From Patescibacteria group bacterium (GTDB lineage Bacteria > Patescibacteriota > Microgenomatia > Levybacterales > UBA12049), in assembly GCA_038063415.1 (NCBI GenBank), contig JBBTVD010000020.1:11629-75628 (forward strand): a stretch of DNA of 64,000 bases. The letters are read 5' to 3'. Positions 3,309 to 57,523 of the stretch are shown here, one piece after another; within the stretch, counting starts at the first letter, position 1, and the number at the start of each line of letters is the position of its first letter. The position numbers and the translations under genes are program-made. The notes under the pieces were generated by a model. The model saw only the letters and a program-made list of their open reading frames with translations, ran no database searches and was not told the origin of the DNA.

Positions 3309-3524
3309 TTATTCGCCAGTTTTATGTTGAATGCCAAGAAGCCAGAGGACAGCTTCTTTTTTGTATCTTCGATCTCCACGAGAATTAGTGCGAATTGCAG
3401 GAAGCTTTCCTCGCTTTCCCCAGCGTTTGATAGTAAGGGGGGAGACATAGAGACTTTTTGTGTTGCCATAATTTTTGCTTATAATGTCAAGAATGAAAAC
3501 TAGCCCTGATGTCAGTGTGAGCAT
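3309..3524 (-). pseudogene. truncated, divergent copy of the excisionase-family HTH gene (C-terminal two-thirds only)
   Basis: The C-terminal 45 aa ('PLTIKRWGKRGKLPAIRTNSRGDRRYKKEAVLWLLGIQHK') are nearly identical to the 4248..4490 gene. The N-terminal HTH helix is replaced by unrelated sequence. It lies in the ~127-bp direct repeat 3320..3446 / 4262..4388. Confidence 0.4.
3320..3446. repeat. direct repeat copy 1 (~88% identical to 4262..4388)
   Basis: Manual alignment shows 46 identical nt followed by scattered mismatches. Confidence 0.7.
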
Positions 3525-3563: not shown

Positions 3564-4247
3564 ATGGCAAAAGAGGGAGAAATGATTCATGAAGAAGAGC
3601 GTACTTTACAGTCGCTTCCATCGGAAGTGCTTGTGCCAAGTATTACGCTTATTGATACCGTGGCTCGGTTAGTTGCTGCTAGAAGAAAAAGAGAGGACTC
3701 ACTCATCTCTTCAGATACTTCACCCCTACCTTTGCCAGTGCGTTTAGATGACCCTGAAAGTTTAGATAGATTTAATTTTTATTACCATTACCCCGCTTAC
3801 GATAATGATAAGGAAGTTATCGAAGACAATACCGAGGTAGCCGAGAAAAGGAAGCGTGATAATAATCTTGCGAAGCTTACAGCGATGAGAGAAGTAGTCC
3901 CTGGGTTGATAAGAGATCCCCGAGCGTATCTTTTGGGACATGCAGATTCAGTTAAGCCAGATCTGAAACAAAGAACTGCTAATTTGCTCGCAGGTTTTTC
4001 TGATGAAGCACTTGCTGATCGATACAGCGCAGCTGGTGAGTTAGAAGCTGTTGGTGTTTTGGGCAGTGCTGTGTATGATCTTGATGGAAAAACCTTTGCT
4101 CGGTTGGAAGCTAATGTCGCGAGCGCACATGCAGCCCTAACTCTTGAAGAAAAGAGAATTACTCCTGTCCGTACCCGCGATACTTTATTAGGAGGTCTAG
4201 TACGTAGATCTTTGAGGAGATTACCTCGAAGAAGAACAAGGCCTTGA
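3564..4247 (+). CDS. hypothetical protein (227 aa)
   Basis: Complete ORF between the two HTH gene copies. No recognisable domain. Arg-rich C-terminus. Confidence 0.4.
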   Translation: MAKEGEMIHEEERTLQSLPSEVLVPSITLIDTVARLVAARRKREDSLISSDTSPLPLPVRLDDPESLDRFNFYYHYPAYDNDKEVIEDNTEVAEKRKRDNNLAKLTAMREVVPGLIRDPRAYLLGHADSVKPDLKQRTANLLAGFSDEALADRYSAAGELEAVGVLGSAVYDLDGKTFARLEANVASAHAALTLEEKRITPVRTRDTLLGGLVRRSLRRLPRRRTRP

Positions 4248-4490
4248 TTACATCTCTGTGCTTTTATGTTGAATGCCAAGAAGCCAGAGGACAGCTTCTT
4301 TTTTGTAGCGGCGATCTCCACGAGAATTAATGCGAATTGCAGGAAGCTTTCCTCTTTTGCCCCAGCGTTTTATCGTAAGTGGAGAAACGCGGAGAATCTC
4401 TGCAACTTCCCGAACAGTCAACAGGTCTGGAAGGTCAGCAATACTTACTGAGGGTTTATTATTTTTTAGGGTGGTCATAGAAGGAATCAA
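4248..4490 (-). CDS. excisionase/MerR-like helix-turn-helix DNA-binding protein (HTH_17 type)
   Basis: 'LLTVREVAEILRVSPLTIKRWGKRGKLPAIRINSRGDRRYKKEAV' is a typical excisionase-family HTH domain. The protein is 80 aa. Confidence 0.6.
   Translation of the reverse strand: MIPSMTTLKNNKPSVSIADLPDLLTVREVAEILRVSPLTIKRWGKRGKLPAIRINSRGDRRYKKEAVLWLLGIQHKSTEM
4262..4388. repeat. direct repeat copy 2 (pairs with 3320..3446)
   Basis: See copy 1. Confidence 0.7.
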
Positions 4491-4551: not shown

Positions 4552-6366
4552 TTATTTCGAACAGGGGACATTGGCAAATCCTTTCGTAGCACTGGTAACG
4601 GTATTATTACATGAAATGATATTGCCTGTGACATTATTTTGCACCCAGAATCCATTTCCTTTGACATTGCTTATCGTATTGTACGTAAAAGTATTTTTGT
4701 TGCCCCAGCCAGGGTAGACACCATGAATCTGATAGCCGTCAAGCAAAGCATTGCTTCCTTTGTTTTCTGTAATCAGCCAATTATTACCTTTGATATCTAC
4801 CCACGAGTCAGCAAAGTTTGTCCCGGCAATTCCAGCATTATCAAAGGTATTTCCTCGGATGATCCCATCTTTGGTTCCTTCTTTGATATCGATACCTTCA
4901 CCTGCGGTGTAACTAACGGTATTTCCAAGGATGTAGTTCCTGTTTGATTCATCTATCTTGCCACCAGTATACGTTGCCCAGTTACTATTGGCGCTCCCGA
5001 CATAAATACCTTCGCCATAGCCGTTATCAAGCGCTCCTGTTCGTTTGTCTTCACCGGTATGATGCACATAGCTGTTTCTAATGACATTATCACTTGAAAA
5101 AGATCGGAAATGGACACCTTCGTCACGAATATTGCGGACTTCAACGCCATCAAGAATATTGTGGTTTGAACCGTCAAGCATAATGCCTTTCTTTGCATTA
5201 AAGACCGTAAAGCCTTTGAGCTGTATATAATTTGCATTGAACAGATGTAATCCATAGTCATTATCTCCATCAATGAGTGCTTTTCTGGTTCCCTGGAGAA
5301 TAATTGGTAGTGCTGAGGTTCCTGATTGGCTGAGTCTAAAAGCTGCTGAAACGTTTTGTTTGCCAATCACAACAGAGGCACTTTTTGTTTTGTAGGTACC
5401 ATCAGCCATAGTAATAACATCTCCTGGTTTTGCATCTGCAAGTGCTGCTGTCAGCTGAGCTGCAGTCGCAACAGTGATAGTTCGTGCACCACCTGATGAA
5501 AGCGGTGGGGTTGTTGGGATAACGACAGTAGTTGTTGGTGAAGGTTGTTGGACTGGGGGTTGTGTGGCTGTAGCAGCAGCAGTCGGCTGTGTAAAGGCGG
5601 TTGGACTTACTGATGGTATGGTCACGGCAGTATTTGCTGTTTCAATAACAATAACAGGAGCATTGGAACTTTCTTTTGATGAGATATAGAGATTATTATT
5701 ATTTTCAGGAGTCGCATCTATGGCAAAGCTTATGACCTTTCCAGCATTTTCGGCAACATAGTTGGTAATATCAATATCTTTCCAGGTATTTTTCTTCGTA
5801 TCGCTAATGCTAGCAATAGTCCTTGGACCGACAGCAGGTTTATTTGTTGCGTTTATAGCTAACTCAGTCCAGTTACTAGCAACAACTTCTTTAATTGTTT
5901 GGGTATCTTTTGAATCATTGGTTATATAGAGGCGAAGCGTTGCTTTGGTAAGTGGCTTATTTGCCAGTTGTGCTAGATTAAATTTGAGATAGGTAATTTT
6001 GTCTTCATCTATCTTATTTTCATTTTTATCGCCGTAGTTTTTATCAGTACTTGATTGGCTCACATGGGTATCTTCAAGGACTGGGATAGTGATGCCTGTG
6101 GTATTTGCTTTACTGCTAAGTTCTGTTGTTTGTCTGGCCAGCCAAACAGCCGTACCGGTAGTAGTTACCAGTAATGTAATCGCAATAACCAGAAAAAAAG
6201 AATATTTGTGTGGAGTTTTCCTCTTCGTTATATGATGCTGCGTTTTCGTTCCTTGAGCAGTTGTGTCTGATTTTATTTCTTTTTCCATATGCTCTCTTTC
6301 CTTATTAATACTGAAGTTTTTACAAAAAGTTGTCAAGTAGGAATAGGGGCACTTATCCCTTGGCAA
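4552..6366 (-). CDS. membrane-anchored secreted protein with a right-handed parallel beta-helix (pectate-lyase-like) domain and a Pro/Thr-rich linker
   Basis: N-terminal TM 'FFLVIAITLLVTTTGTAVWL', a linker 'PTAFTQPTAAATATQPPVQQPSPTTTVVIPTTPP', and C-terminal repeats rich in N/G/D typical of beta-helix proteins. It shares a ~110-aa module with the 10913..12004 protein. Confidence 0.55.
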   Translation of the reverse strand: MPRDKCPYSYLTTFCKNFSINKEREHMEKEIKSDTTAQGTKTQHHITKRKTPHKYSFFLVIAITLLVTTTGTAVWLARQTTELSSKANTTGITIPVLEDTHVSQSSTDKNYGDKNENKIDEDKITYLKFNLAQLANKPLTKATLRLYITNDSKDTQTIKEVVASNWTELAINATNKPAVGPRTIASISDTKKNTWKDIDITNYVAENAGKVISFAIDATPENNNNLYISSKESSNAPVIVIETANTAVTIPSVSPTAFTQPTAAATATQPPVQQPSPTTTVVIPTTPPLSSGGARTITVATAAQLTAALADAKPGDVITMADGTYKTKSASVVIGKQNVSAAFRLSQSGTSALPIILQGTRKALIDGDNDYGLHLFNANYIQLKGFTVFNAKKGIMLDGSNHNILDGVEVRNIRDEGVHFRSFSSDNVIRNSYVHHTGEDKRTGALDNGYGEGIYVGSANSNWATYTGGKIDESNRNYILGNTVSYTAGEGIDIKEGTKDGIIRGNTFDNAGIAGTNFADSWVDIKGNNWLITENKGSNALLDGYQIHGVYPGWGNKNTFTYNTISNVKGNGFWVQNNVTGNIISCNNTVTSATKGFANVPCSK

Positions 6367-13139: not shown

Positions 13140-14648
13140 TTATTGTGTTTGTGTAAAGGTTATATCATCAACCCAAACAGTTCCTGCTTCAAGCCCTGCT
13201 TGAAATCCGACAAATACATTGTTTTGCGTATCTGATGCGGTAAACGTATACGTAAAATCTTGCCATTCAGGGGTAAGATCAAATGTCTTTCTATCGTAGA
13301 CAGTGAATGGACGGACAGATTGTTGGACAACGACGTCTATTTTTCGGTTAGCTGCGGCTTTTGCAGAAAATCCTACCATATACGTCTTTCCAGTAGTGAT
13401 CGCTAAACCATATTGGGCGATCTCTACATCCCAAGGATTTTGTGCGGCTTGTGCTATTTCAATTTTGGCTGCATTTGATCCATCTTCTTGCGCTTCGGTG
13501 GTAACACTGAAATTGCCGCTGGCACCGGCTCTTTGGTTAAATTGCCAATCAGACGTACCATCTTCAAACGATGCATTTTTAAGGGCACCAGTATTTCCTC
13601 CAAGAAAGTGAGCAAAGAGTTCTTTGAGCAGTTCCAGAAGACGTATAAGTAATCCCTTAAGTTCTTCGTCGCTTAGATAATCAGTATTACTATCAGTATT
13701 TGGTGTCCCCGTAATTGATGGCTGCATGTCTGTTGGGTCGGCTGTTGTCCCACTGGGAGATGCAAGTATCTCAGTTGATGGTTCTGCGCTAGGTTGCTGA
13801 GAAATAGCTTCTGTTATGGATGGCCCACTAGACGGTTCTGCCGATGGTTCAGCAGAAGGTGGTTGTGTCGATGCTTGAGGCACATCACACGCTATTGGCT
13901 TGCAGCCCTTACCAAGGGTATCTTGGAAGCATACGGCACCACTTCCACAATCAGCATCAACACTGCATGGTTTGGAACAAATAGTTGCATCGGTAAACTC
14001 AGCCGCACAAATAAATGCTTCCTTTCCAGCGCATTCACCGCCACCTTTGGTGCAGTATTTCCCAACCCCTTTTTCATTACCAGCATCACCAGGGGCTCCA
14101 CATCCTTGAACTGGTCCCTGGCTAATGACCGTAGATGGGGCAACCGATAGTTGTTGTGTATCTGAAGGTTCAGGATTTGTGTCACATGGTGTCGTAGAAG
14201 GTTCAGGATTATTGTTGTCGCCACCATTGTCGTTATTATTTCCTTCACTACCAAGTAATATCTTGATCAACTCTTCAAGAAATTTAAAGATTAATTCAAT
14301 CAATTTCCCAATAAAGCCATTTTCTGTTTTTCTTTCCCAACGTTCTTGCTGACCATCAGGGGTTGGCTGGTTACGTGTGACAGAAACAGGAGCAGCTTGT
14401 GTTGTTATACAAGGGTTAGTTGTTATGCTGGCAGCTTGTTCACTACTTGGAGATGCCTCTGCTGGGGAAAGGGATTCAGTAATATCCGCCACTGCTTGTT
14501 CCTTGACAACAGTTGGGCAGGTATTGCCAAGACAAAAAAATTGATCAGTAGGACTTACTTCAAGAGCTTTACTCTGTGATGTGAATGGTAGCACAAGGAA
14601 GAACGAAACGAGGAAAAAGATAAAACTGATGAATAGCTTAGAACGCAT
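13140..14648 (-). CDS. secreted Cys-rich protein with a C-terminal CBM4/9-like carbohydrate-binding module
   Basis: Signal/anchor 'LFISFIFFLVSFFLVL', a Cys-rich central region, and C-terminal 'LKNASFEDGTSDWQFNQRAG...AKIEIAQAAQNPWDVEIAQYGLAITTGKTYMVGFSAKAAANRKI...TVWVDDITF'. The C-terminal part is paralogous to the N-terminal module of 22373..24544. Confidence 0.55.
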   Translation of the reverse strand: MRSKLFISFIFFLVSFFLVLPFTSQSKALEVSPTDQFFCLGNTCPTVVKEQAVADITESLSPAEASPSSEQAASITTNPCITTQAAPVSVTRNQPTPDGQQERWERKTENGFIGKLIELIFKFLEELIKILLGSEGNNNDNGGDNNNPEPSTTPCDTNPEPSDTQQLSVAPSTVISQGPVQGCGAPGDAGNEKGVGKYCTKGGGECAGKEAFICAAEFTDATICSKPCSVDADCGSGAVCFQDTLGKGCKPIACDVPQASTQPPSAEPSAEPSSGPSITEAISQQPSAEPSTEILASPSGTTADPTDMQPSITGTPNTDSNTDYLSDEELKGLLIRLLELLKELFAHFLGGNTGALKNASFEDGTSDWQFNQRAGASGNFSVTTEAQEDGSNAAKIEIAQAAQNPWDVEIAQYGLAITTGKTYMVGFSAKAAANRKIDVVVQQSVRPFTVYDRKTFDLTPEWQDFTYTFTASDTQNNVFVGFQAGLEAGTVWVDDITFTQTQ

Positions 14649-32015: not shown

Positions 32016-32729
32016 ATGATTGCACAATTACGAAAGGAAATCCAAAAAGCAGCAGATCCCAGGAAAGCTACATTTGTTGCACGGTTTTTTAAAACAGATC
32101 CAGGAGACTACGGAGAAGGGGATGTGTTTATTGGATTAACCGTTCCCCAATGTCGAAAGATAGTTGCTGCATATCATGATCTATCGCTTGAAGAGATTGG
32201 CCAGTTGTTGCAATCAAAGATTCATGAAGAGCGTTTAATTGCTTTACTATTGTTGGTTCACCAATTCCAAAAAGGGGATCAATCTCAAAAAAAAGATATC
32301 TATACGTTTTATCTTGCTCATACCAAGTTCATCAATAATTGGGACTTGGTTGATCTTTCTGCGGATAAGATTGTTGGAGAGTATCTTTTTTCTCAATCCG
32401 TCATTGCGAGCGAAGCAAAGCAATCTCATCGTGAGGGGATTGCCACGTCGTCTTTGACTCCTCGCAATGACGATATTTTGGTAATCCTTGCTCAGTCAGA
32501 CAGTCTTTGGGAGCGAAGAATTGCAATGATTGCAACCTATGCTTTTATTAAAAATGGTGAATCTGATTTGACGTTTAAGATTGCAGATATTCTCTTACAT
32601 GATAGTCATGATCTCATCCAAAAAGCTGTGGGGTGGATGCTTCGAGAGAGTCTCAAAAGAACAAGAAGAAGTATTTCTCAAACCAAGATATCACAAGATG
32701 CCGCGTACCATGCTGCGATATGCTATTGA
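32016..32729 (+). CDS. DNA alkylation repair protein (AlkD-like HEAT-repeat family) carrying an in-frame ~25-codon insertion from a palindromic mini-element
   Basis: The family signature 'ARFFKTDPGDYGEGDVFIGLTVPQCRKIVA...HEERLIALLLL...FINNWDLVDLSADKIVGEYLF' and C-terminal 'HDLIQKAVGWMLRE' flank the inserted segment 'SVIASEAKQSHREGIATSSLTPRNDDI', which is encoded by 32399..32472. Confidence 0.65.
   Translation: MIAQLRKEIQKAADPRKATFVARFFKTDPGDYGEGDVFIGLTVPQCRKIVAAYHDLSLEEIGQLLQSKIHEERLIALLLLVHQFQKGDQSQKKDIYTFYLAHTKFINNWDLVDLSADKIVGEYLFSQSVIASEAKQSHREGIATSSLTPRNDDILVILAQSDSLWERRIAMIATYAFIKNGESDLTFKIADILLHDSHDLIQKAVGWMLRESLKRTRRSISQTKISQDAAYHAAICY
32399..32472. repeat. palindromic mini-element copy 1 (12-bp perfect terminal inverted repeat cgtcattgcgag/ctcgcaatgacg with a nested inner hairpin), located inside a CDS
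   Basis: Read directly from the sequence. It is homologous to the 56890..56959 copy. Confidence 0.75.
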
Positions 32730-32778
32730 ACGGTTCCCAGATGTAGAACGGAGGCATTATTTACAGAAGTAATTCCTG

Positions 32779-40381: not shown

Positions 40382-41134
40382 ATGGCACGACCAGAAGGAA
40401 ATCCTATTGAAGGTTTAAGAAAGCTTATTCACGCAGCTTTTATGGAAGTAGTTCGTTCTTTTGCAGGGATTCTTGCATCTCTAAAAGTGCAAAAGAGGAA
40501 ACGCAGGATGTTCGTTATTTCTAGTAGTATAGGATTTGGCATTACCTATATATTATTTCTTCTTACCTATGGAATTCTCCCCCAATTTGATCGAACAAAT
40601 GTAAGACTGCCTGTATTCTGCGAAGGGACTCAAGGCGACCTTACGATACCTTCTCGATTGAGATATGCATTGCCTAATGGAGAGATTGGTATATTGATAA
40701 AGAGTAACGCTGAAACTGCTGTTGTAGCCACTATTGATACAAGTAATCCATCTGATGCAAGCACGGTCTTTGTGGTAAGCAAAGATGGCAATAAAATGCT
40801 GAGAACGATGCATTTTGAGAACGATGTTATTAGTGCCGCTATCGATGAGGGAATTGTTTACATTTTCAATGACAAGTTAGGGTATCTTCTGGACGAACAT
40901 ACTGGCGAGGATGAAAAAACATTTCTTAAAATAGATAACTATGGTGGTCTTTCCCAATCTAATAACCCCATTCTTCCATTTGGTTCTGATGGTTATTGGT
41001 ATATGGAAACGACTGGTATCATCTCAAGTTGGCATATTGATGGGAAAGTCAAATCACGACCTCGTTTGGTGTTTAATGGCATTGCGCGAGGTTGTTTTAT
41101 ATCAGGTGAGACTGGTCAGGTTATTAACCTCTGA
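40382..41134 (+). CDS. membrane protein with a C-terminal soluble domain (paralogue A, 250 aa)
   Basis: TM 'FVISSSIGFGITYILFLLTYGIL'. From 'NGEIGILIKSNAET' onward it is identical to 44454..45266. The N-terminal ~100 aa are only ~65% identical. Confidence 0.5.
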   Translation: MARPEGNPIEGLRKLIHAAFMEVVRSFAGILASLKVQKRKRRMFVISSSIGFGITYILFLLTYGILPQFDRTNVRLPVFCEGTQGDLTIPSRLRYALPNGEIGILIKSNAETAVVATIDTSNPSDASTVFVVSKDGNKMLRTMHFENDVISAAIDEGIVYIFNDKLGYLLDEHTGEDEKTFLKIDNYGGLSQSNNPILPFGSDGYWYMETTGIISSWHIDGKVKSRPRLVFNGIARGCFISGETGQVINL

Positions 41135-41192
41135 GAAGTAATTATGCATTCACTTGAAAAGCCCATAGTTTTATGATAAGATTTACGACTCT

Positions 41193-42548
41193 ATGGCGAG
41201 AGTAGATCATGAATCAGGAAGAACCAGTGTACTCGATCTAAATCGAGCAAAAGCAGTTGGATTCTTGGATTATAACTTGAGAGGACAAAGACATAAAACT
41301 TCAGTCATGCATGATTGGCGTGATTTTTTGGCAAGTGGAAGGACCGGAGGTTATCTTGAATTACCTACAGGCGCAGATAAGACCATTGTAGCTGAATTTG
41401 TGGCACTTGGTCTGAAGACAATTGTTACCTCATCAACAAGAGAGACCTTAGATGAAACGAAAGCAACAATTGAGAGTCATGCAGGGGGGATTGAGGTAAC
41501 TAATTATGATGGCCGCCTAACAGGTGTAAGAGGAAATGTCATCAACACAACATTACCTTCCCTTGAAACATTATCAGATATTCCAGCGGTTGCAAAAGGA
41601 GTAGAATTGATCATTGTTGATGATGATACATTGGGAAGACAACGCCAGGAACTGTGGCGGAGATTTCCAAATGCGCTTTTTGTAGGACTTACCACTACAT
41701 CGGATTTTTCTCAACGTGATCAATTAGAACGCAGAGGGACGGTAGATCCGGGTGAACGTTGGACGGGAATGTTTAAAAATCGTATTCATAGGCTTAGCAG
41801 AGAGGAATTAGTGACAAAAGCTAAAATAGGAGAAAGAATAGCAGCAGCAACTGACCTTCCATCAATAAATAATGTCCTTGATGATATGGTAATAATGGTA
41901 CGCAAACGTAATCAAGCAGGATCAGTTTTAGATTTTTATAGAATGATGGCAGAACTCCTTCCAGACACGCTTCGTCTAGATAAACAAGAAATACTTTTAG
42001 AAGGAATAAGTAATACGAATGTTGATCAACAAAAAATGGGAAAAAAAGCCTTGTTGTTCCTTAATCTGAGATCTGTCTTTACCGTAGTACAACCGCATTT
42101 TTCTGCTGATGAAGAGACAAATGTAGAGATCTTGCAAACAGCATTATTGCAATGTTATGAGAAAATGAAAAATAAAAAAACAACTCCGCAACAAATATTA
42201 AGGGAAGGGGCGACTGCTTCATTGGTAAGAAAGCAAAGAGAGATGCAGGAGGTAATCGTCTATCGGGATACGAGAGAGCCCGATAGGGAAGATGGAAGAC
42301 AAGCTGATCTTATGAGCGCTGTTGAGGAGAGGGCTATGATTGCTTCTGTTTTAGGAGAACTTTCTGAAAGAGAAAGAAAAGTGATAGAATTACGTTTTGG
42401 GATTGGAACTAATGATTGGAGAGAACAAACTCTGGAGGAAGTCGGTCATGTAGTTGGTGTATCAGGGAGAAGAATTAGCGTAATTGAGACAAAAACATTA
42501 AGTAAGTTACGAGACACGAGATTAAGGAAGTTTCTCGATGATTTATGA
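41193..42548 (+). CDS. fusion protein: degenerate SF2-helicase/ResIII-like N-terminal domain plus C-terminal sigma-70 region-4 HTH (451 aa)
   Basis: N-terminal 'GYLELPTGADKTIVAEFVA' resembles a Walker A/motif I with Gly-to-Ala/Asp substitutions. 'ELIIVDDD' sits in the DExH position. C-terminal 'LSERERKVIELRFGIGTNDWREQTLEEVGHVVGVSGRRISVIETKTLSKLR' is a classic sigma-70 region 4. Sigma regions 2 and 3 are not evident. Confidence 0.5.
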   Translation: MARVDHESGRTSVLDLNRAKAVGFLDYNLRGQRHKTSVMHDWRDFLASGRTGGYLELPTGADKTIVAEFVALGLKTIVTSSTRETLDETKATIESHAGGIEVTNYDGRLTGVRGNVINTTLPSLETLSDIPAVAKGVELIIVDDDTLGRQRQELWRRFPNALFVGLTTTSDFSQRDQLERRGTVDPGERWTGMFKNRIHRLSREELVTKAKIGERIAAATDLPSINNVLDDMVIMVRKRNQAGSVLDFYRMMAELLPDTLRLDKQEILLEGISNTNVDQQKMGKKALLFLNLRSVFTVVQPHFSADEETNVEILQTALLQCYEKMKNKKTTPQQILREGATASLVRKQREMQEVIVYRDTREPDREDGRQADLMSAVEERAMIASVLGELSERERKVIELRFGIGTNDWREQTLEEVGHVVGVSGRRISVIETKTLSKLRDTRLRKFLDDL

Positions 42549-42643
42549 TAGTACAAAGGTTTGAGTCTGTCTACCGTGAGCCATATTTAGCTCATATTAT
42601 ATCAAGAAAGTCTTTATACAACTCTACTGATTTCTGCTAAAAT

Positions 42644-42955
42644 ATGGCAATGAGTCAAAAGTTGAGTTTCAAACCATCGGATATTGAAAAAGTATATAAA
42701 GATCAGGCCAAAAGATATTCAGGCTTTGCTAATGATTCTTTCAGTTGGCTTTATCTTGAAAAGCCATGGGGCACAACATCACCGCTATTTTTGAGACCAG
42801 TTGCTGATATTGTAAATGAAACAATAAAAGCGGGTTTTACTATAAAGTCATTAGAAGAACCCTCTGTTCCATTGGCAGCAAAAAAAGCAGACCATGTGAA
42901 TTATTTGAAGTATTCTTTTTGCCCATCACGAATTGCTGTCATTGCCACAAAATAA
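42644..42955 (+). CDS. small hypothetical protein (103 aa), possibly a remnant of a methyltransferase C-terminus
   Basis: ORF with a weak resemblance to the C-terminal beta strands of class I methyltransferases. Low confidence. Confidence 0.25.
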   Translation: MAMSQKLSFKPSDIEKVYKDQAKRYSGFANDSFSWLYLEKPWGTTSPLFLRPVADIVNETIKAGFTIKSLEEPSVPLAAKKADHVNYLKYSFCPSRIAVIATK

Positions 42956-43053
42956 AAATGATGAATCAACCACAAAGCTTGTTGGTGCAACGTAGGGGGC
43001 TAAGGAGTTTTGTTGCAATGATCCAAATGCTCATGAGAAGAGTATATCATTAA

Positions 43054-43100
43054 GTTAGAATTTTTTACGCACAGAATCAGGAGTTTAAATTCCAAGCTTT
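43054..43100. repeat. motif-1 copy b (upstream of the Fic gene)
   Basis: 'GTTAGAATTTTTTACGCACAGAATCAGGAGTTTAAATTCCAAGCTTT'. Confidence 0.6.
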
Positions 43101-43198
43101 ATATGAATTACTTTAGGGATGGTGTTAAATGTTAAAATGGCAATTGTTAAATGTTCGATAGTGTGATATTCTCTTTTTAGCTTCAAATTTAGCTAAAT

Positions 43199-44371
43199 AT
43201 GTTAAATATTGAAAATAAAATGAGTAAGTATTCATACGACAAATTATTACTAGTACAGCCCAAATTTAACTCTACTTTGACAGATTTAATTATTGAGTTA
43301 GATTATTTAAGGAAAAAGCCTTTAGGTGGTAGCACTCCACCTCGGATATTTTTCCAATTAAAAAGTATATTTCATACCTTAGAAAGTATTGGGTCTGCAC
43401 GTATTGAAGGAAATCATACGACTATTGCTGAGTTTATTGAAACGAAGTTAGAGAAACATAAGAGTAAAGACGAAAAAATAAATGAAATTCAAAATATAGA
43501 AGCAGCAATGGATTTTATTGATAATTCTATAGATGCAACACCTATAAATGACGCTTTCATACGTGAGTTACATAAGAGAGTTGTGGGTGGTTTATCTCCT
43601 CATGAAGAAGGAGATACTCATCCTGGTGAATATCGAAAAGGAAATATTAAAATTGCTGGTACACAACATGTACCCCCAGAATCTCTGCAAGTCATTGATT
43701 ATATGCAGGAGTTAAATGGATTTATTAATAATGACGATCCACATAAATATGATCTGCTTAAAATTGCATTAGCACATCATCGTTTTGTATGGATTCACCC
43801 CTTTGGAAATGGTAATGGTCGTACTGTTAGATTACTTACCTACGCACAACTTATAAAGTCAGGTTTTAATGTTCACGTAGGAAGAATTATTAACCCTACT
43901 GCAATTTTTTGTAGCGATCGAGAGAAATATTATTCGTATTTATCGAAAGCAGATGCAGGGGATAGTACTGGCCTCTTAAATTGGAGTGAGTATGTGTTAT
44001 CTGGATTGAAACAGGAGATAGAAAAAATTGACCATTTGTTAGATTATAGTTATTTATCTGAAAAAATATTACTTCCTGCCATTAGTTTCTCACTTGATAG
44101 AAAAGTTATTACTCAGCTTGAGGCGGATATTTTAAAAATTGCGGTTAAAAAACAATTATTTCAAGCATCAGACTTAAAAGAACTATTTCCCAACACAATT
44201 CCGGCTCAAGTTTCTCGTTATATCAGTCGTTTGAAAGAAAAAAAGATGATTGCTCCGGAAAATAAAAATAGTAGAAAGTACCTTATAGATTTTGGTAATA
44301 ATTACTTACTTCGGGGTGTTATTAAAATGTTAGATCAACATGGTTTTTTACCTCTTAAAGGAGAGTCTTAA
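43199..44371 (+). CDS. Fic family protein, class II (N-terminal inhibitory helix), with a C-terminal winged-helix-like domain (390 aa)
   Basis: Fic motif 'HPFGNGNGRTVRLL', in which Asn occupies the usual D/E position. An inhibitory-helix motif (S/T)xxxE(G/N) is present as 'SARIEGN'. Confidence 0.75.
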   Translation: MLNIENKMSKYSYDKLLLVQPKFNSTLTDLIIELDYLRKKPLGGSTPPRIFFQLKSIFHTLESIGSARIEGNHTTIAEFIETKLEKHKSKDEKINEIQNIEAAMDFIDNSIDATPINDAFIRELHKRVVGGLSPHEEGDTHPGEYRKGNIKIAGTQHVPPESLQVIDYMQELNGFINNDDPHKYDLLKIALAHHRFVWIHPFGNGNGRTVRLLTYAQLIKSGFNVHVGRIINPTAIFCSDREKYYSYLSKADAGDSTGLLNWSEYVLSGLKQEIEKIDHLLDYSYLSEKILLPAISFSLDRKVITQLEADILKIAVKKQLFQASDLKELFPNTIPAQVSRYISRLKEKKMIAPENKNSRKYLIDFGNNYLLRGVIKMLDQHGFLPLKGES

Positions 44372-44374
44372 AAG

Positions 44375-44428
44375 GTTCGAGTCCGTCCGTCGTAAAGCTA
44401 GAGTTCGAGGCTGAAATGTTGGGCAGGA
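44375..44428. repeat. motif-2 copy A (3' flanking repeat 'GGTTCGAGTCCGTCCGyCGTrAGGCTAGAGTTCGAGGCTrAAT...')
   Basis: Starts 4 nt after the Fic stop codon. Aligned with the copies at 48506 and 52507. Confidence 0.6.
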
Positions 44429-44453: not shown

Positions 44454-45266
44454 ATGACGCCTTTACAAATAGGACTTGGTACCAGTATATTTATCAATCT
44501 AATAATTGGGCTACTCTATATCGCTATCCTACAAGAGCCAGGTTCAGCATATTATTTTTTTCTCTTTCTTACTTTCTTCAGCGGTTCCTTTCTTGCAGGA
44601 ATTCTTGCATCTCTAAAAGCGCAAAAAAGGAAACGCAGGGAGTTCGTTGTTTCTAGTAGTATAGGGTTTGGCATTACCTGTATGTTATTTCTTATTACCT
44701 ATGGAGTTCTTCCCCAATTTGATCGAACAAATGTTAGATTACCTGTATTCTGCGAAGGAAATCAAGGCGACCTTAAGATACCTTTTCAATTGAGATACAC
44801 TTTACCCAATGGAGAGATTGGTATATTGATAAAGAGTAACGCTGAAACTGCTGTTGTAGCCACTATTGATACAAGTAATCCATCTGATGCAAGCACGGTC
44901 TTTGTGGTAAGCAAAGATGGCAATAAAATGCTGAGAACGATGCATTTTGAGAACGATGTTATTAGTGCCGCTATCGATGAGGGAATTGTTTACATTTTCA
45001 ATGACAAGTTAGGGTATCTTCTGGACGAACATACTGGCGAGGATGAAAAAACATTTCTTAAAATAGATAACTATGGTGGTCTTTCCCAATCTAATAACCC
45101 CATTCTTCCATTTGGTTCTGATGGTTATTGGTATATGGAAACGACTGGTATCATCTCAAGTTGGCATATTGATGGGAAAGTCAAATCACGACCTCGTTTG
45201 GTGTTTAATGGCATTGCGCGAGGTTGTTTTATATCAGGTGAGACTGGTCAGGTTATTAACCTCTGA
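44454..45266 (+). CDS. membrane protein paralogue B (270 aa); N-terminus diverged from 40382..41134, remainder identical
   Basis: See 40382..41134. Confidence 0.5.
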   Translation: MTPLQIGLGTSIFINLIIGLLYIAILQEPGSAYYFFLFLTFFSGSFLAGILASLKAQKRKRREFVVSSSIGFGITCMLFLITYGVLPQFDRTNVRLPVFCEGNQGDLKIPFQLRYTLPNGEIGILIKSNAETAVVATIDTSNPSDASTVFVVSKDGNKMLRTMHFENDVISAAIDEGIVYIFNDKLGYLLDEHTGEDEKTFLKIDNYGGLSQSNNPILPFGSDGYWYMETTGIISSWHIDGKVKSRPRLVFNGIARGCFISGETGQVINL

Positions 45267-45324
45267 GAAGTAATTATGCATTCACTTGAAAAGCCCATAG
45301 TTTTATGATAAGATTTACGACTCT

Positions 45325-46680
45325 ATGGCGAGAGTAGATCATGAATCAGGAAGAACCAGTGTACTCGATCTAAATCGAGCAAAAGCAGTTGGATTCTTGG
45401 ATTATAACTTGAGAGGACAAAGACATAAAACTTCAGTCATGCATGATTGGCGTGATTTTTTGGCAAGTGGAAGGACCGGAGGTTATCTTGAATTACCTAC
45501 AGGCGCAGATAAGACCATTGTAGCTGAATTTGTGGCACTTGGTCTGAAGACAATTGTTACCTCATCAACAAGAGAGACCTTAGATGAAACGAAAGCAACA
45601 ATTGAGAGTCATGCAGGGGGGATTGAGGTAACTAATTATGATGGCCGCCTAACAGGTGTAAGAGGAAATGTCATCAACACAACATTACCTTCCCTTGAAA
45701 CATTATCAGATATTCCAGCGGTTGCAAAAGGAGTAGAATTGATCATTGTTGATGATGATACATTGGGAAGACAACGCCAGGAACTGTGGCGGAGATTTCC
45801 AAATGCGCTTTTTGTAGGACTTACCACTACATCGGATTTTTCTCAACGTGATCAATTAGAACGCAGAGGGACGGTAGATCCGGGTGAACGTTGGACGGGA
45901 ATGTTTAAAAATCGTATTCATAGGCTTAGCAGAGAGGAATTAGTGACAAAAGCTAAAATAGGAGAAAGAATAGCAGCAGCAACTGACCTTCCATCAATAA
46001 ATAATGTCCTTGATGATATGGTAATAATGGTACGCAAACGTAATCAAGCAGGATCAGTTTTAGATTTTTATAGAATGATGGCAGAACTCCTTCCAGACAC
46101 GCTTCGTCTAGATAAACAAGAAATACTTTTAGAAGGAATAAGTAATACGAATGTTGATCAACAAAAAATGGGAAAAAAAGCCTTGTTGTTCCTTAATCTG
46201 AGATCTGTCTTTACCGTAGTACAACCGCATTTTTCTGCTGATGAAGAGACAAATGTAGAGATCTTGCAAACAGCATTATTGCAATGTTATGAGAAAATGA
46301 AAAATAAAAAAACAACTCCGCAACAAATATTAAGGGAAGGGGCGACTGCTTCATTGGTAAGAAAGCAAAGAGAGATGCAGGAGGTAATCGTCTATCGGGA
46401 TACGAGAGAGCCCGATAGGGAAGATGGAAGACAAGCTGATCTTATGAGCGCTGTTGAGGAGAGGGCTATGATTGCTTCTGTTTTAGGAGAACTTTCTGAA
46501 AGAGAAAGAAAAGTGATAGAATTACGTTTTGGGATTGGAACTAATGATTGGAGAGAACAAACTCTGGAGGAAGTCGGTCATGTAGTTGGTGTATCAGGGA
46601 GAAGAATTAGCGTAATTGAGACAAAAACATTAAGTAAGTTACGAGACACGAGATTAAGGAAGTTTCTCGATGATTTATGA
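45325..46680 (+). CDS. helicase-like/sigma-70 region-4 fusion protein, second identical copy
   Basis: Identical 451-aa translation to 41193..42548. Confidence 0.5.
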   Translation: MARVDHESGRTSVLDLNRAKAVGFLDYNLRGQRHKTSVMHDWRDFLASGRTGGYLELPTGADKTIVAEFVALGLKTIVTSSTRETLDETKATIESHAGGIEVTNYDGRLTGVRGNVINTTLPSLETLSDIPAVAKGVELIIVDDDTLGRQRQELWRRFPNALFVGLTTTSDFSQRDQLERRGTVDPGERWTGMFKNRIHRLSREELVTKAKIGERIAAATDLPSINNVLDDMVIMVRKRNQAGSVLDFYRMMAELLPDTLRLDKQEILLEGISNTNVDQQKMGKKALLFLNLRSVFTVVQPHFSADEETNVEILQTALLQCYEKMKNKKTTPQQILREGATASLVRKQREMQEVIVYRDTREPDREDGRQADLMSAVEERAMIASVLGELSERERKVIELRFGIGTNDWREQTLEEVGHVVGVSGRRISVIETKTLSKLRDTRLRKFLDDL

Positions 46681-46775
46681 TAGTACAAAGGTTTGAGTCT
46701 GTCTACCGTGAGCCATATTTAGCTCATATTATATCAAGAAAGTCTTTATACAACTCTACTGATTTCTGCTAAAAT

Positions 46776-47087
46776 ATGGCAATGAGTCAAAAGTTGAGTT
46801 TCAAACCATCGGATATTGAAAAAGTATATAAAGATCAGGCCAAAAGATATTCAGGCTTTGCTAATGATTCTTTCAGTTGGCTTTATCTTGAAAAGCCATG
46901 GGGCACAACATCACCGCTATTTTTGAGACCAGTTGCTGATATTGTAAATGAAACAATAAAAGCGGGTTTTACTATAAAGTCATTAGAAGAACCCTCTGTT
47001 CCATTGGCAGCAAAAAAAGCAGACCATGTGAATTATTTGAAGTATTCTTTTTGCCCATCACGAATTGCTGTCATTGCCACAAAATAA
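46776..47087 (+). CDS. small hypothetical protein, second identical copy
   Basis: Identical to 42644..42955. Confidence 0.25.
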   Translation: MAMSQKLSFKPSDIEKVYKDQAKRYSGFANDSFSWLYLEKPWGTTSPLFLRPVADIVNETIKAGFTIKSLEEPSVPLAAKKADHVNYLKYSFCPSRIAVIATK

Positions 47088-47185
47088 AAATGATGAATCA
47101 ACCACAAAGCTTGTTGGTGCAACGTAGGGGGCTAAGGAGTTTTGTTGCAATGATCCAAATGCTCATGAGAAGAGTATATCATTAA

Positions 47186-47232
47186 GTTAGAATTTTTTAC
47201 GCACAGAATCAGGAGTTTAAATTCCAAGCTTT
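47186..47232. repeat. motif-1 copy c (duplicate of copy b inside unit 2)
   Basis: Offset 4132 from copy b. Confidence 0.6.
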
Positions 47233-47330
47233 ATATGAATTACTTTAGGGATGGTGTTAAATGTTAAAATGGCAATTGTTAAATGTTCGATAGTGTGATA
47301 TTCTCTTTTTAGCTTCAAATTTAGCTAAAT

Positions 47331-48503
47331 ATGTTAAATATTGAAAATAAAATGAGTAAGTATTCATACGACAAATTATTACTAGTACAGCCCAAATTTA
47401 ACTCTACTTTGACAGATTTAATTATTGAGTTAGATTATTTAAGGAAAAAGCCTTTAGGTGGTAGCACTCCACCTCGGATATTTTTCCAATTAAAAAGTAT
47501 ATTTCATACCTTAGAAAGTATTGGGTCTGCACGTATTGAAGGAAATCATACGACTATTGCTGAGTTTATTGAAACGAAGTTAGAGAAACATAAGAGTAAA
47601 GACGAAAAAATAAATGAAATTCAAAATATAGAAGCAGCAATGGATTTTATTGATAATTCTATAGATGCAACACCTATAAATGACGCTTTCATACGTGAGT
47701 TACATAAGAGAGTTGTGGGTGGTTTATCTCCTCATGAAGAAGGAGATACTCATCCTGGTGAATATCGAAAAGGAAATATTAAAATTGCTGGTACACAACA
47801 TGTACCCCCAGAATCTCTGCAAGTCATTGATTATATGCAGGAGTTAAATGGATTTATTAATAATGACGATCCACATAAATATGATCTGCTTAAAATTGCA
47901 TTAGCACATCATCGTTTTGTATGGATTCACCCCTTTGGAAATGGTAATGGTCGTACTGTTAGATTACTTACCTACGCACAACTTATAAAGTCAGGTTTTA
48001 ATGTTCACGTAGGAAGAATTATTAACCCTACTGCAATTTTTTGTAGCGATCGAGAGAAATATTATTCGTATTTATCGAAAGCAGATGCAGGGGATAGTAC
48101 TGGCCTCTTAAATTGGAGTGAGTATGTGTTATCTGGATTGAAACAGGAGATAGAAAAAATTGACCATTTGTTAGATTATAGTTATTTATCTGAAAAAATA
48201 TTACTTCCTGCCATTAGTTTCTCACTTGATAGAAAAGTTATTACTCAGCTTGAGGCGGATATTTTAAAAATTGCGGTTAAAAAACAATTATTTCAAGCAT
48301 CAGACTTAAAAGAACTATTTCCCAACACAATTCCGGCTCAAGTTTCTCGTTATATCAGTCGTTTGAAAGAAAAAAAGATGATTGCTCCGGAAAATAAAAA
48401 TAGTAGAAAGTACCTTATAGATTTTGGTAATAATTACTTACTTCGGGGTGTTATTAAAATGTTAGATCAACATGGGTTTTTGCCTCTTAAAGGTGAGTCC
48501 TAA
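47331..48503 (+). CDS. Fic family protein, class II, second copy
   Basis: Identical 390-aa translation to 43199..44371. A few silent or near-terminal nucleotide differences occur in the last ~30 bp. Confidence 0.75.
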   Translation: MLNIENKMSKYSYDKLLLVQPKFNSTLTDLIIELDYLRKKPLGGSTPPRIFFQLKSIFHTLESIGSARIEGNHTTIAEFIETKLEKHKSKDEKINEIQNIEAAMDFIDNSIDATPINDAFIRELHKRVVGGLSPHEEGDTHPGEYRKGNIKIAGTQHVPPESLQVIDYMQELNGFINNDDPHKYDLLKIALAHHRFVWIHPFGNGNGRTVRLLTYAQLIKSGFNVHVGRIINPTAIFCSDREKYYSYLSKADAGDSTGLLNWSEYVLSGLKQEIEKIDHLLDYSYLSEKILLPAISFSLDRKVITQLEADILKIAVKKQLFQASDLKELFPNTIPAQVSRYISRLKEKKMIAPENKNSRKYLIDFGNNYLLRGVIKMLDQHGFLPLKGES

Positions 48504-48505
48504 AA

Positions 48506-48560
48506 GGTTCGATTCTATCTGCCGTGAGGCTAGAATTCGAGGATAAATTATTGGGCAAGG
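48506..48560. repeat. motif-2 copy B
   Basis: 'GGTTCGATTCTATCTGCCGTGAGGCTAGAATTCGAGGATAAATTATTGGGCAAGG'. Confidence 0.6.
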
Positions 48561-55843: not shown

Positions 55844-56878
55844 TCAAAAAAGAGAACTTTCTTCCTCTTCCTGCTCTTTTTTGAATGCTTCATCAGCACA
55901 ATTGTTGCAAACGGGTTCTCCACAATGGCTACAATATTCAGGTTCTGTCGGATTAAGATCGGCCCCAGCCATCTCAAAGAGGGCATCATCAAGTGGTCGG
56001 AACGGCTTCATGCGTGCCTCTTTGTTTCTTTTGTCAAAGAGTTTGGTGATAAGCTCCTGTTGCTCAGGATAGCCATTTAAAAAGTCTTTGAACGTCATAA
56101 TCTTTTTTCCTTCTACCTGCAATTTCCCCCCAGGAAAGAATTTCACTATTTTTTCTTCATCAGTAAGCAAGAGCTTTGTCCAGACAATTGGCCAGGGGTA
56201 ATACGCCCTGATCATTCGATCAAGTTGTTTTGGAGATGGGGGGTTTATCACATCAATAAAACTGTCTTTTTTGGTGAATTGTTTTGTGTAGGTCGCTTGT
56301 GATGCATCTTGTACTGTTGGTTTGGCGGTACCTTTTATATAATCCTGTATGATTGGGATGATGATCTCTCCACCGATTTGATTGAGTACTCTAAGAAGAG
56401 AATCGGTTGTTTCATCAGGTTTTACTGCATATTCCTGTTGCGTCAAAATTGCTCCAGCATCGACTTTTTTGGCCATGGTAATAACACTTACTCCGGTCTT
56501 TTTCTCTCCTGCAAGTATCGCTGATGGGGCAGGGGAAGCACCTCTATACTTGGGAAGTAAAGAATGGTGAATATTAAGACTCGCATATTTGGGGAGCTCA
56601 AGGAGTTTTTCGGGTAAAATGAGGCCATAATCTTCGACAATAAGAAAATCTGGTTGAAGTATCGCGAGGTTTTGAATGGTCGCATCATCCAGCTTATTGA
56701 TCATAAAGAGCGTCAGACCTTGTTCTTCGGCAAATGAACGGAGAGGATTTGGTGTACTGTTGCCTCGTTTGTCAGGTCGGTCGGGAAGGGTGACAACGGC
56801 CGAGAGTCCAATCTTGTCATGAAGAATTCGTGCACCGATAAGGGAATATTTACTGCTACCAAAAAAAATAATATTCAT
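55844..56878 (-). CDS. fmt: methionyl-tRNA formyltransferase with a C-terminal CxxC...CxxC extension
   Basis: 'NIHHSLLPKYRGASP' is the formyltransferase signature. The extra C-terminal ~60 aa end in 'CSHCGEPVCNNC'. Confidence 0.85.
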   Translation of the reverse strand: MNIIFFGSSKYSLIGARILHDKIGLSAVVTLPDRPDKRGNSTPNPLRSFAEEQGLTLFMINKLDDATIQNLAILQPDFLIVEDYGLILPEKLLELPKYASLNIHHSLLPKYRGASPAPSAILAGEKKTGVSVITMAKKVDAGAILTQQEYAVKPDETTDSLLRVLNQIGGEIIIPIIQDYIKGTAKPTVQDASQATYTKQFTKKDSFIDVINPPSPKQLDRMIRAYYPWPIVWTKLLLTDEEKIVKFFPGGKLQVEGKKIMTFKDFLNGYPEQQELITKLFDKRNKEARMKPFRPLDDALFEMAGADLNPTEPEYCSHCGEPVCNNCADEAFKKEQEEEESSLF

Positions 56879-56889
56879 AGTTGATTAAA

Positions 56890-56959
56890 CGTCATTGCGA
56901 AGAGCGAAGCGACGAAGCAATCTCTTATGAGGATCGCCACGCTTCGTCCGCGATGACGG
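56890..56959. repeat. palindromic mini-element copy 2 (intergenic, between def and fmt)
   Basis: 'cgtcattgcgaagagcgaagcgacgaagcaatctcttatgaggatcgccacgcttcgtccgcgatgacgg' shares its arms and internal blocks with 32399..32472. Confidence 0.7.
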
Positions 56960-57523
56960 TTACAAAGTGATCTCTTCAAATGCTGTTTCTCCCTCTGCAT
57001 TTTTTCGTGAACGATAGAGATGATTATGTTGCTCAAAAACTCTTTTGGGAAAGAGAATTCCTTCAAGGTGGTCGCATTCGTGTTGAATGATGGTTGCCAA
57101 AAAGCCATCAAATGTTTTTTTATGCTGTTCACCTGTCTCATCCTGATAAGAGAGGATAACCCCATGGGCTCTTTTGACTACTCCCCAAATGTCCTGAATA
57201 GAAAGGCATCCCTCAAGCTGTACTCCTTTTTTATTTTTCGTTTTTGTTTTCCCTCCATGTACCTCATGTGGCGCTTGCATCCTCGATTCAATTTTGGGAT
57301 TAATAAAGGTAAGCAAGGGAGATTTAGGACTCTGTTTTACGATAAAAATTTGCACTGCTTTGCCGACCTGTGGGGCTGCAAGTCCAACGCCCTCAGGATC
57401 TTGTGCACTAAGAAGTGTTTCCTCCATCTCACGTAGCAGATCTCGAATGCGCTTATCAATGCTCGTTACGGGTTTTGCTTTTTGTGACAAGACTTTATTT
57501 GGTGATTGAACTATCGATAACAT
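56960..57523 (-). CDS. def: peptide deformylase
   Basis: Motifs 'GVGLAAPQVG', 'EGCLS' and 'QHECDHLEG'. Confidence 0.9.
   Translation of the reverse strand: MLSIVQSPNKVLSQKAKPVTSIDKRIRDLLREMEETLLSAQDPEGVGLAAPQVGKAVQIFIVKQSPKSPLLTFINPKIESRMQAPHEVHGGKTKTKNKKGVQLEGCLSIQDIWGVVKRAHGVILSYQDETGEQHKKTFDGFLATIIQHECDHLEGILFPKRVFEQHNHLYRSRKNAEGETAFEEITL

Follow-up and report, generated by a model that had tools for sequence, protein, structure and literature searches.

Each of the two super-families of bacterial repetitive extragenic palindromic (REP) sequences has its own unpaired tag at the terminus, GTAG in one and CGTC in the other (Di Nocera, De Gregorio & Rocco 2013, BMC Genomics 14:522, PMC3733652). 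As described in the text and supplements of that paper, on which all our comparisons with it are based, repeats of the CGTC type have a CCA tail, a 4-5-nt loop and an 8-9-bp stem in which A-T and T-A are the first two pairs, with TGTC and CCTC as tag variants. They occur mainly as head-to-head dimers, often heterodimers, in which one large hairpin is possible, and usually lie just downstream of open reading frames (ORFs) with no associated transposase. Among their members are two Rickettsia palindromic elements (RPEs) of R. conorii, RPE-6 (CGTC-1) and RPE-4 (CGTC-4), and dRS3 of Neisseria. Here we analyse a stretch of 64,000 nucleotides (the window) from contig JBBTVD010000020.1 of an uncultured groundwater bacterium of the Patescibacteria group. 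It carries one palindromic element, e1, in frame inside an AlkD-like DNA alkylation repair gene, and a diverged second copy, e2, between def and fmt. Both are very probably copies of a REP-type repeat that belongs to the CGTC-tagged super-family.

In element e1 (32399-32472, plus strand; 74 nt) two CGTC-tagged units stand head to head as a heterodimer; the element reads, in order, CGTCATTGCGAG-CGAAGCAAAGCAATCTC-ATCGTGAG-GGGATTGCCACGTCGTCTTTGACTC-CTCGCAATGACG. Unit A (32399-32427, plus strand) consists of the tag CGTC (32399-32402), a 22-nt body ATTGCGAGCGAAGCAAAGCAAT containing GCGAAGC (32403-32424) and the tail CTC (32425-32427). Unit B (32436-32472) lies on the minus strand, with its tag CGTC at 32472-32469, a 30-nt body at 32468-32439 and the tail CCC at 32438-32436. 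Between the two units, the unstranded spacer ATCGTGAG (32428-32435) is the loop of the long hairpin. An earlier note on this DNA had described a palindrome with perfect 12-bp arms and an inner hairpin, and sequence, shuffling and folding all agree with it. The 12-nt arms CGTCATTGCGAG (32399-32410) and CTCGCAATGACG (32461-32472) are fully complementary and constitute the sole perfect G+C-rich inverted repeat of such length, at a spacing of at most 130 nt, in the whole window. With at most one mismatch allowed, the 12-mer arm is found at three sites in the window (both e1 arms and 56890); shuffled sequences gave an expectation of 0.15, and three sites were attained in none of 100 shuffles. As RNA, the 82-nt stretch around e1 folds with -34.3 kcal/mol (z = -5.0), the fold including an inner helix GCAATCTC/GGGGATTGC.

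Element e2 (56890-56958, minus strand) is a diverged heterodimer that fills the def-fmt spacer. Its 28-nt ATTGC...GCAAT unit lies at 56890-56924 and its 22-nt ATCGC...GCGAT unit at 56930-56958. The upstream neighbour is def, encoding peptide deformylase (56960-57523, minus strand, stop codon 56960-56962), and the downstream one is fmt, encoding methionyl-tRNA formyltransferase (55844-56878, minus strand, start at 56878), so that e2 is separated from the def stop by 1 nt and from the fmt ATG by 11 nt. The copy at 56890-56959 noticed earlier is real, its end being at 56958. As RNA, e2 reaches between -31 and -32 kcal/mol (-31.1 for the whole element), with z at about -3.9, and in mRNA sense the 22-nt unit comes first, the same order as in e1; folded as DNA, the whole elements reach -19.1 (e1) and -16.2 (e2) kcal/mol. 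A unit profile hidden Markov model (HMM), trained on 498 units that all come from other organisms, recognised e1 unit A (E 3e-7), e1 unit B (E 2e-6) and the left unit of e2 (E 9e-5), and no further units in the window.

Copies of the family to which both elements belong, the ATTGCGAG family, share one layout. An outer arm is followed by a variable segment (often GCGAAGC), an inner arm [GAA/GTG/GCG]GCAATC and a variable loop; the second half consists of GATTGC[TTC/CAC/CGC], a variable segment and the other outer arm. The conserved terminus is one base longer than the GTC of the arms and reads [C/T]GTC...GAC[G/A]. Among the 127 copies listed, 85 have C and 35 have T immediately before GTC, which gives the tags CGTC and TGTC; e1 has CGTC at 32399-32402 and GACG at 32469-32472, and e2 has CGTC at 56890-56893 and GACG at 56955-56958. 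Each unit is thus built of the tag, a body with AT at both ends and a short CCA-like tail, the tails of 126 listed copies being CCA (64), CTC (24), CTT (11) and CCC (9), those of e1 CTC and CCC, and those of e2 CTC and CCT. Head-to-head heterodimers make up 183 of 231 listed copies (79%), most commonly as 22+28 nt; the sizes are 22+30 in e1 and 28+22 in e2. In tag, AT start, CCA-type tail, head-to-head heterodimeric arrangement, lack of a target-site duplication (TSD) and lack of a dedicated transposase, e1 and e2 agree with the CGTC repeats as PMC3733652 describes them, and the likeness extends to the dimer statistics, to the position 3' of ORFs and to the existence of in-frame copies.

The same source nevertheless does not appear to list this particular family. 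In its text and five supplements, the DNA strings ATTGC, GCAAT and CGTCAT of the present family (ATTGCGAG...GCAAT units, 22+28-30 nt) are absent, as are the peptides VIAS, ARND, PRND, LAMT, VIASEAKQS... and RHCE...; every intragenic peptide catalogued there is of another type. The family is thus apparently unlisted, judged by that text and those supplements and not by the consensus sequences of Figure 2. Literature searches with the DNA arms and the peptide strings returned unrelated primers or no match. By their own account, the authors of PMC3733652 may have overlooked units that are bulged or unusual.

GTAG-tagged REPs with a REP-associated tyrosine transposase (RAYT, a Y1 transposase), in REP doublets forming hairpins (REPINs) or bacterial interspersed mosaic elements (BIMEs), resemble e1 and e2 in their inverted REP doublets, long hairpin and lack of a TSD. 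They differ in the tag, GTAG there and CGTC here, and no RAYT or other recurrent gene is found near the present copies. REPIN populations are reportedly lineage-specific; the ATTGCGAG sequence, by contrast, is common to several phyla.

The in-frame position of e1 calls for comparison with other translated repeats. Its core GTC...GAC (32400-32471) is 72 nt long and coincides with codons V129-D152 in phase 0 of ORF 32016-32729, giving the core peptide VIASEAKQSHREGIATSSLTPRND; the in-frame insertion of about 25 residues that had been proposed thus proves to be exactly 24 codons. The loop of the host ORF has 42 aa with e1, versus 18-19 aa in orthologues. RPEs (Ogata et al. 2000/2002, via PMC10969869 and PMC3733652) are, as those two papers relate, likewise in-frame palindromes translated in housekeeping genes. 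Translation in frame within housekeeping ORFs was found here for the copies in AlkD (six orthologues), UvrA and GuaA. The present family also occurs in Rickettsiales metagenome-assembled genomes (MAGs) and in Candidatus Tisiphia (L027, L084, L105, L110). RPEs of the RPE-1 type differ, being about 100-150 bp long and confined to Rickettsia according to the same two papers, whereas the present family crosses phyla and, going by their descriptions, has another sequence. The suggestion of the earlier note, a selfish hairpin element comparable to Rickettsia RPEs, is supported and in essence right, given the probable membership of e1 in the very super-family that holds RPE-4 and RPE-6.

In Additional file 3 of PMC3733652, many in-frame CGTC copies of 20-30 aa are recorded, with uvrA/B/C/D, recBCD, polA and dnaE/dnaE2 prominent among the genes. 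The Coxiella elements QMITE1 and QMITE2 (PMC5896051) are also small, ORF-overlapping repeats with a bias to DNA repair (ogt, recN, mutT, ruvB); they differ in length (150-400 bp), in their direct repeats of 2-11 nt and in mostly changing the 3' ends of genes rather than lying internally in frame. Our in-frame copies outside AlkD come from two low-GC Gammaproteobacteria MAGs and were confirmed by Pfam: one of 87 nt in UvrA (L044, peptide VIASKAKQSHSTGSANNGIATSPLAPRND) and one of 78 nt in the GATase domain of GuaA (L038, peptide VIARPRSGAAISKNSEIASEGAPRND). In-gene calls were limited to such low-GC, Pfam-checked cases. Flanking open frames were tried as a test of coding location and dropped, since high-GC genomes contain long spurious ORFs. 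When the core length is a multiple of 3, phases 0 (VIA...RND) and 2 (RHCE...LAMT) are open and phase 1 stops at the TGA of AATGAC. In all seven well-supported in-gene copies (six in AlkD, one in UvrA) the short unit is 5' in mRNA sense. The same arrangement, a 22-23-nt unit 5' and a 28-36-nt unit 3', is seen in window e1 and e2, L002, L003, L328-L330 and L044; this bias is not significant, given the few independent events, and both orientations are open in phase 0.

The AlkD loop was then followed across orthologues. The best 120 protein matches are all Patescibacteria-like; in about half of them the segment from ...IVG to LWERRI has 18-19 aa, and in the rest it is longer. For nine orthologues the DNA of the expanded loop was read. 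The ATTGCGAG family occupies the loop in the window, L002, L003, L328, L329 and L330, with cores of 72, 72, 66, 72, 81 and 75 nt, every one a multiple of 3, while core lengths over the family as a whole show no such bias (47:45:35 for the three remainders, among the matches listed). Counts of native loop residues preceding/following the element are 4/1, 1/2, 3/0, 3/0, 6/3 and 5/3, which indicates at least three separate insertion points. A further orthologue, P0005 (L331, 1001-1714), has a syntenic remnant, GTCATTGCAAGCAAAG|ACGAT, with the peptide SVIASKDD and the same left junction as in the window. A deletion bounded by the short repeats GCAAAG and GCAATG has removed about 48 nt of its interior, which illustrates how a copy within a gene can decay.

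The same loop is used by other repeats as well. In L124 the insert is a canonical CGTC-1-like dimer (8-bp stem, GAAA loop), and in L125 and L127 it is a CGTC-2-like dimer, with stems of 8 bp and loops of 5 nt (CTTGA or CTCGA); all three inserts have the published unit stem of 8-9 bp. In L126 the loop contains an unrelated long GGGGTCC... palindrome that marks one clade. Some observations on these loci may be added. In L127 (506-640, protein P0071) a second GGATGAC lies 18 nt past the CGTC-2-like dimer (peptide ...RVQDDILKKDDIL...) and possibly represents the right-hand end of a previous insert at this site. Locus L126 (Candidatus Levybacteria GCA_016204565.1) has a canonical CGTC-2-like head-to-head dimer at 13759-13821, in the rpsF-ssb gap directly past the rpsF stop, and a single unit at about 8440, in the region of a YchF-like GTPase gene.

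In a neighbour-joining tree, insert carriers are scattered among AlkDs with plain loops. The ranking of protein matches was biased by the insert-bearing query, the same repeat family being present in 16 of the top 110 AlkD matches. A pattern-based sample, free of that bias, comprised 76 AlkD loci from Joint Genome Institute (JGI) metagenomes; 73 of them had the plain loop, and none had a CGTC-type insert. The alignment of AlkD matches contained no insertions at other internal positions of the protein. The AlkD insert is therefore lineage-restricted and recurrent, not ancestral, in line with what the earlier note had expected of an orthologue alignment. Orthologues with the same residues, which that note had named as a sign of an ancestral segment, do superficially exist, but those residues are the translated repeat at differing codon positions.

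The gene that harbours e1 is itself damaged. The AlkD-like (PF08713) coding region before the lesion extends over 32016-32650 (plus strand) and contains the motifs NNW109D110LVD113 and GW207MLRE. ORF 32016-32729 matches the PF08713 DNA alkylation repair family (Pfam E 3.6e-47) over profile positions 1-187 only; the last 27 positions are encoded in another frame, in ORF 32581-32772, where the displaced C-terminal part RVSKEQEEVFLKPRYHKMPRTMLRYAIERFPDVERRHYLQK occupies 32644-32772 (plus strand). According to tblastn with intact orthologues, the frame switches directly past the catalytic-Trp motif GWMLRE, at about 32648: orthologues read LRE-VGKR-VSE, and the window copy LRE, one extra base and VSKE. 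Relative to the orthologues 11 nt are deleted, and the near-invariant V-G-K-R is gone, while W109, D110, D113 and W207 are all retained. The idea that the frame had remained unbroken therefore holds for the insert itself, which is in frame, and not for the ORF, which the 11-nt deletion disrupts downstream. Another Hainich groundwater sample yielded an independent ENA assembly (L001), which agrees with the window at 99.97% identity along 11.5 kb, free of gaps, and shares with it the insert, the lesion and the 237-aa product; the lesion is thus real. The window copy is a member of the AlkD fold family without an intact frame and, to judge from its sequence, alkD is probably a pseudogene here. 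The NCBI annotation presents the 237-aa AlkD-like product as an ordinary protein.

Five close orthologues (P0002, P0003, P0004, P0007 and P0010) are intact and have the insert, which is consequently compatible with a full-length protein. An AlphaFold2 (AF2) model of P0004 (predicted local distance difference test, pLDDT, 94.2; predicted template-modelling score, pTM, 0.90) has the AlkD fold, with template-modelling (TM) scores of 0.65-0.78 to 2b6c, 3jxz and 5clb (E. faecalis and B. cereus AlkD). A direct PDB sequence search with P0004 gave no match; profile and fold searches did. In the model, helix 106-125 after the W-D...D motif extends into the first third of the insert, and confidence dips solely in the insert (block means 83 and 61), to be at least 97 thereafter. 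The insert is modelled as a surface excursion between two helices.

Outside AlkD, the family is spread very widely, and the further copies anticipated by the earlier note are very many in other genomes. A search for exact arms (GTCATTGCGAG-N40-70-CTCGCAATGAC, one genome per species) retrieved at least 120 stretches from genome contigs of at least 10 phyla. Matches come from Alphaproteobacteria (Bradyrhizobium, sphingomonads, Rickettsiales and others) and Gammaproteobacteria (Legionellales, Coxiellaceae and others), as well as from Bacteroidota, Chloroflexota, Planctomycetota, Cyanobacteria, Deltaproteobacteria, Zixibacteria, Margulisbacteria, a Clostridiaceae MAG, Patescibacteria and Berkelbacteria. 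This range is far wider than that of the published CGTC families, for which the text and supplements of PMC3733652 give five phyla, mainly alphaproteobacterial and without Patescibacteria. In IMG/VR the same search gave at least 120 stretches, with up to three copies per contig of about 10 kb; L166, L179 and L193 (predicted viral, 8-12 kb) have three ATTGCGAG family copies each. Typically the copies are located just downstream of genes, like e2, and sometimes within genes. In a Candidatus Tisiphia endosymbiont (L084) a ATTGCGAG-type cluster (2128-2833 and 4794-5088) stands beside minimal, 50-nt CGTC-1-type dimers GTCATTCCTGCGAAAGCAGGAATCTAGATTCCCGCCTACGCGGGAATGAC; different CGTC families thus coexist, clustered, in this Rickettsiales genome.

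Several points weigh against the assignment of e1 and e2 to a mobile CGTC repeat. The 8-9-bp stem and 4-5-nt loop described for CGTC families are lacking in their units, which are poor hairpins: ATTGC/GCAAT pairs over 5 bp and GCGAAGC adds a mini-stem, and their DNA folds range from -2.7 (e1 unit A) to -5.4 kcal/mol. Just two copies, e1 and e2, are present within the 64-kb window. To our knowledge, no mobilising enzyme has been found for any CGTC repeat, and we call the family mobile because of its distribution and not of observed transposition. Finally, the element is 74-89% identical between orthologues, compared with 64-73% for the flanking coding sequence (324 nt) and 38-51% for its third positions; DNA conserved above the level of synonymous sites is unexpected for a purely neutral passenger. 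As to the weak unit stems, they imply that the stable form is the dimer hairpin. The 22-nt body would in length fit a 9+4+9 stem-loop. GCGAAGC occurs in 62 and its complement in 63 of 126 listed copies (in the window, for example, at 32409-32415 and 56904-56910). The heptamer d(GCGAAGC) is an unusually stable DNA mini-hairpin, and it may substitute for the absent unit stem.

The positions conserved in the element are those of the four arms, the loop being variable. Two readings of this conservation remain: constraint on the nucleic acid, or insertion or conversion after the lineages had split. Since unrelated palindromes entered one loop in different Patescibacteria lineages and the arms are conserved, it is conceivable that the AlkD helix-helix loop is a true insertion hot spot and not merely permissive, although we consider this doubtful. 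If it were true, the hot spot could arise by targeting, through single-stranded DNA (ssDNA) associated with the repair enzyme or through transcription-coupled hairpin capture; alternatively, the encoded or RNA hairpin could benefit repair genes.

Another explanation, which we regard as unlikely, is that the hairpin is retained for a function; adaptation, and not mere tolerance, would then account for its repeated presence in the AlkD loop and among repair genes. The function could reside in the nucleic acid (a site for RNase III or other processing, an mRNA stabiliser, a translational coupler of def and fmt, a gyrase or recombinase site) or in the protein, as modulation of repair enzymes. An element kept so far above third-position identity would suit such a role, as would the short unit coming first in 7/7 in-gene copies, the placement of e2 exactly between a stop and a start codon, and the excess of REP and MITE inserts among repair genes, which the literature notes without an explanation (PMC3733652, PMC5896051). 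Conservation could, however, equally result from re-insertion out of a conserved pool; most AlkD orthologues do without the insert, the copy in L331 has decayed by deletion and the very gene that hosts e1 is broken. Nor did Rfam offer support: there was no gathering-level match in the window or in eight loci, and none at E<=1 for e1 and e2. As to the intercistronic RNA structure that the earlier note had suggested, a terminator-like tail or U-tract was looked for at e2 and not found, from which it follows that any role of e2 would be that of an mRNA 3'-end or processing structure.

The perfect 12-bp terminal inverted repeats (TIRs), the small size and the many dispersed copies might also recall a classical miniature inverted-repeat transposable element (MITE), that is, a deletion derivative of an insertion sequence (IS) with a DDE transposase, mobilised through its TIRs. 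This is very unlikely. None of the 127 copies listed has a TSD (offsets 0-3, lengths 2-8), longer ORF-bearing forms are lacking and orphan arms are few in about 1 Mb of flanking loci, and recurrent neighbour genes comprise only ABC, response-regulator, SDR, HlyD, LysR and ACAD families, with no transposase among them. Moreover, the interior is made of two REP-like units, not of IS ends. Two other candidates were discarded: an element like the intervening sequences (IVSs) of 23S rRNA, with a small ORF in long forms, as long arm pairs were not found and orphan arms are rare; and an integron attC-like site, suggested by the four ATTGC/GCAAT boxes, which was an analogy only, with no supporting evidence. 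The core motifs of attC differ from the boxes of e1 and e2. That the 24 residues are an ancestral or convergent part of the AlkD clade and the palindrome incidental is hardly credible: similar residues do stand in the same loop of several orthologues at 57-66% identity, but the element DNA is also found in non-coding sequence (e2) and in unrelated genes and phyla, native residue counts around it vary among carriers, and these are scattered in a tree in which the plain loop prevails, as it does in the metagenomes.

Returning to a REP-type repeat of the CGTC super-family, we can outline how its copies may arise and persist. The inverted pair of units would fold into one long hairpin, as ssDNA or RNA, and copies would spread via a trans-acting activity that recognises the tag, the hairpin or ssDNA. 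Within genes, we presumably see those copies that survived purifying selection, being a multiple of 3 in length, free of stops and situated in a solvent-exposed loop. The AlkD copy may be such a survivor, which would lengthen the helix after the catalytic W-D motif and add a flexible excursion. The arms would be kept at the nucleotide level by constraint or by repeated re-insertion, while loop sequence and protein surroundings drift. Copies decay through internal deletion between short repeats, as in L331. In the window, the host alkD would later have been broken by the unrelated 11-nt deletion. The hairpin e2, at the def 3' end, is most likely passive or a mild stabiliser of the mRNA.

Two further repeats in the window should be recorded. 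Positions 40451-44425 and 44584-48557 form a tandem duplication of 3975 bp with 98.9% identity; each copy codes for two proteins, one of 451 aa that has a sigma-70 region-4 domain and one of 390 aa that has a Fic domain. ORF 3564-4247 is flanked by direct repeats of 118 bp (3320-3437 and 4262-4379; 92% identity).

Both the phenomenon and the class represented by e1 and e2 have already been published, and e1 is a further example rather than a new kind. What is new is the host phylum, the apparently unlisted and widespread family, the recurrence of several repeat families in a single AlkD loop, the conservation of the arms above background and the broken state of this host gene. In-frame protein decoration of the REP/RPE type is hereby extended to the Candidate Phyla Radiation. 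Such repeats cause junk-like peptides to recur in predicted proteomes (VIASEAKQS..., ...LLRFARND, ...DCFASLAMT), and translated REPs can inflate homology scores among insert-bearing proteins, as happened in our AlkD ranking. The recurrent AlkD loop, together with the UvrA case, adds data on the association of REPs with DNA-repair genes, which still lacks an explanation. If the AlkD loop were indeed a hot spot, it would provide a system for studying how CGTC REPs are mobilised without a known transposase and why they are in excess in DNA-repair genes.

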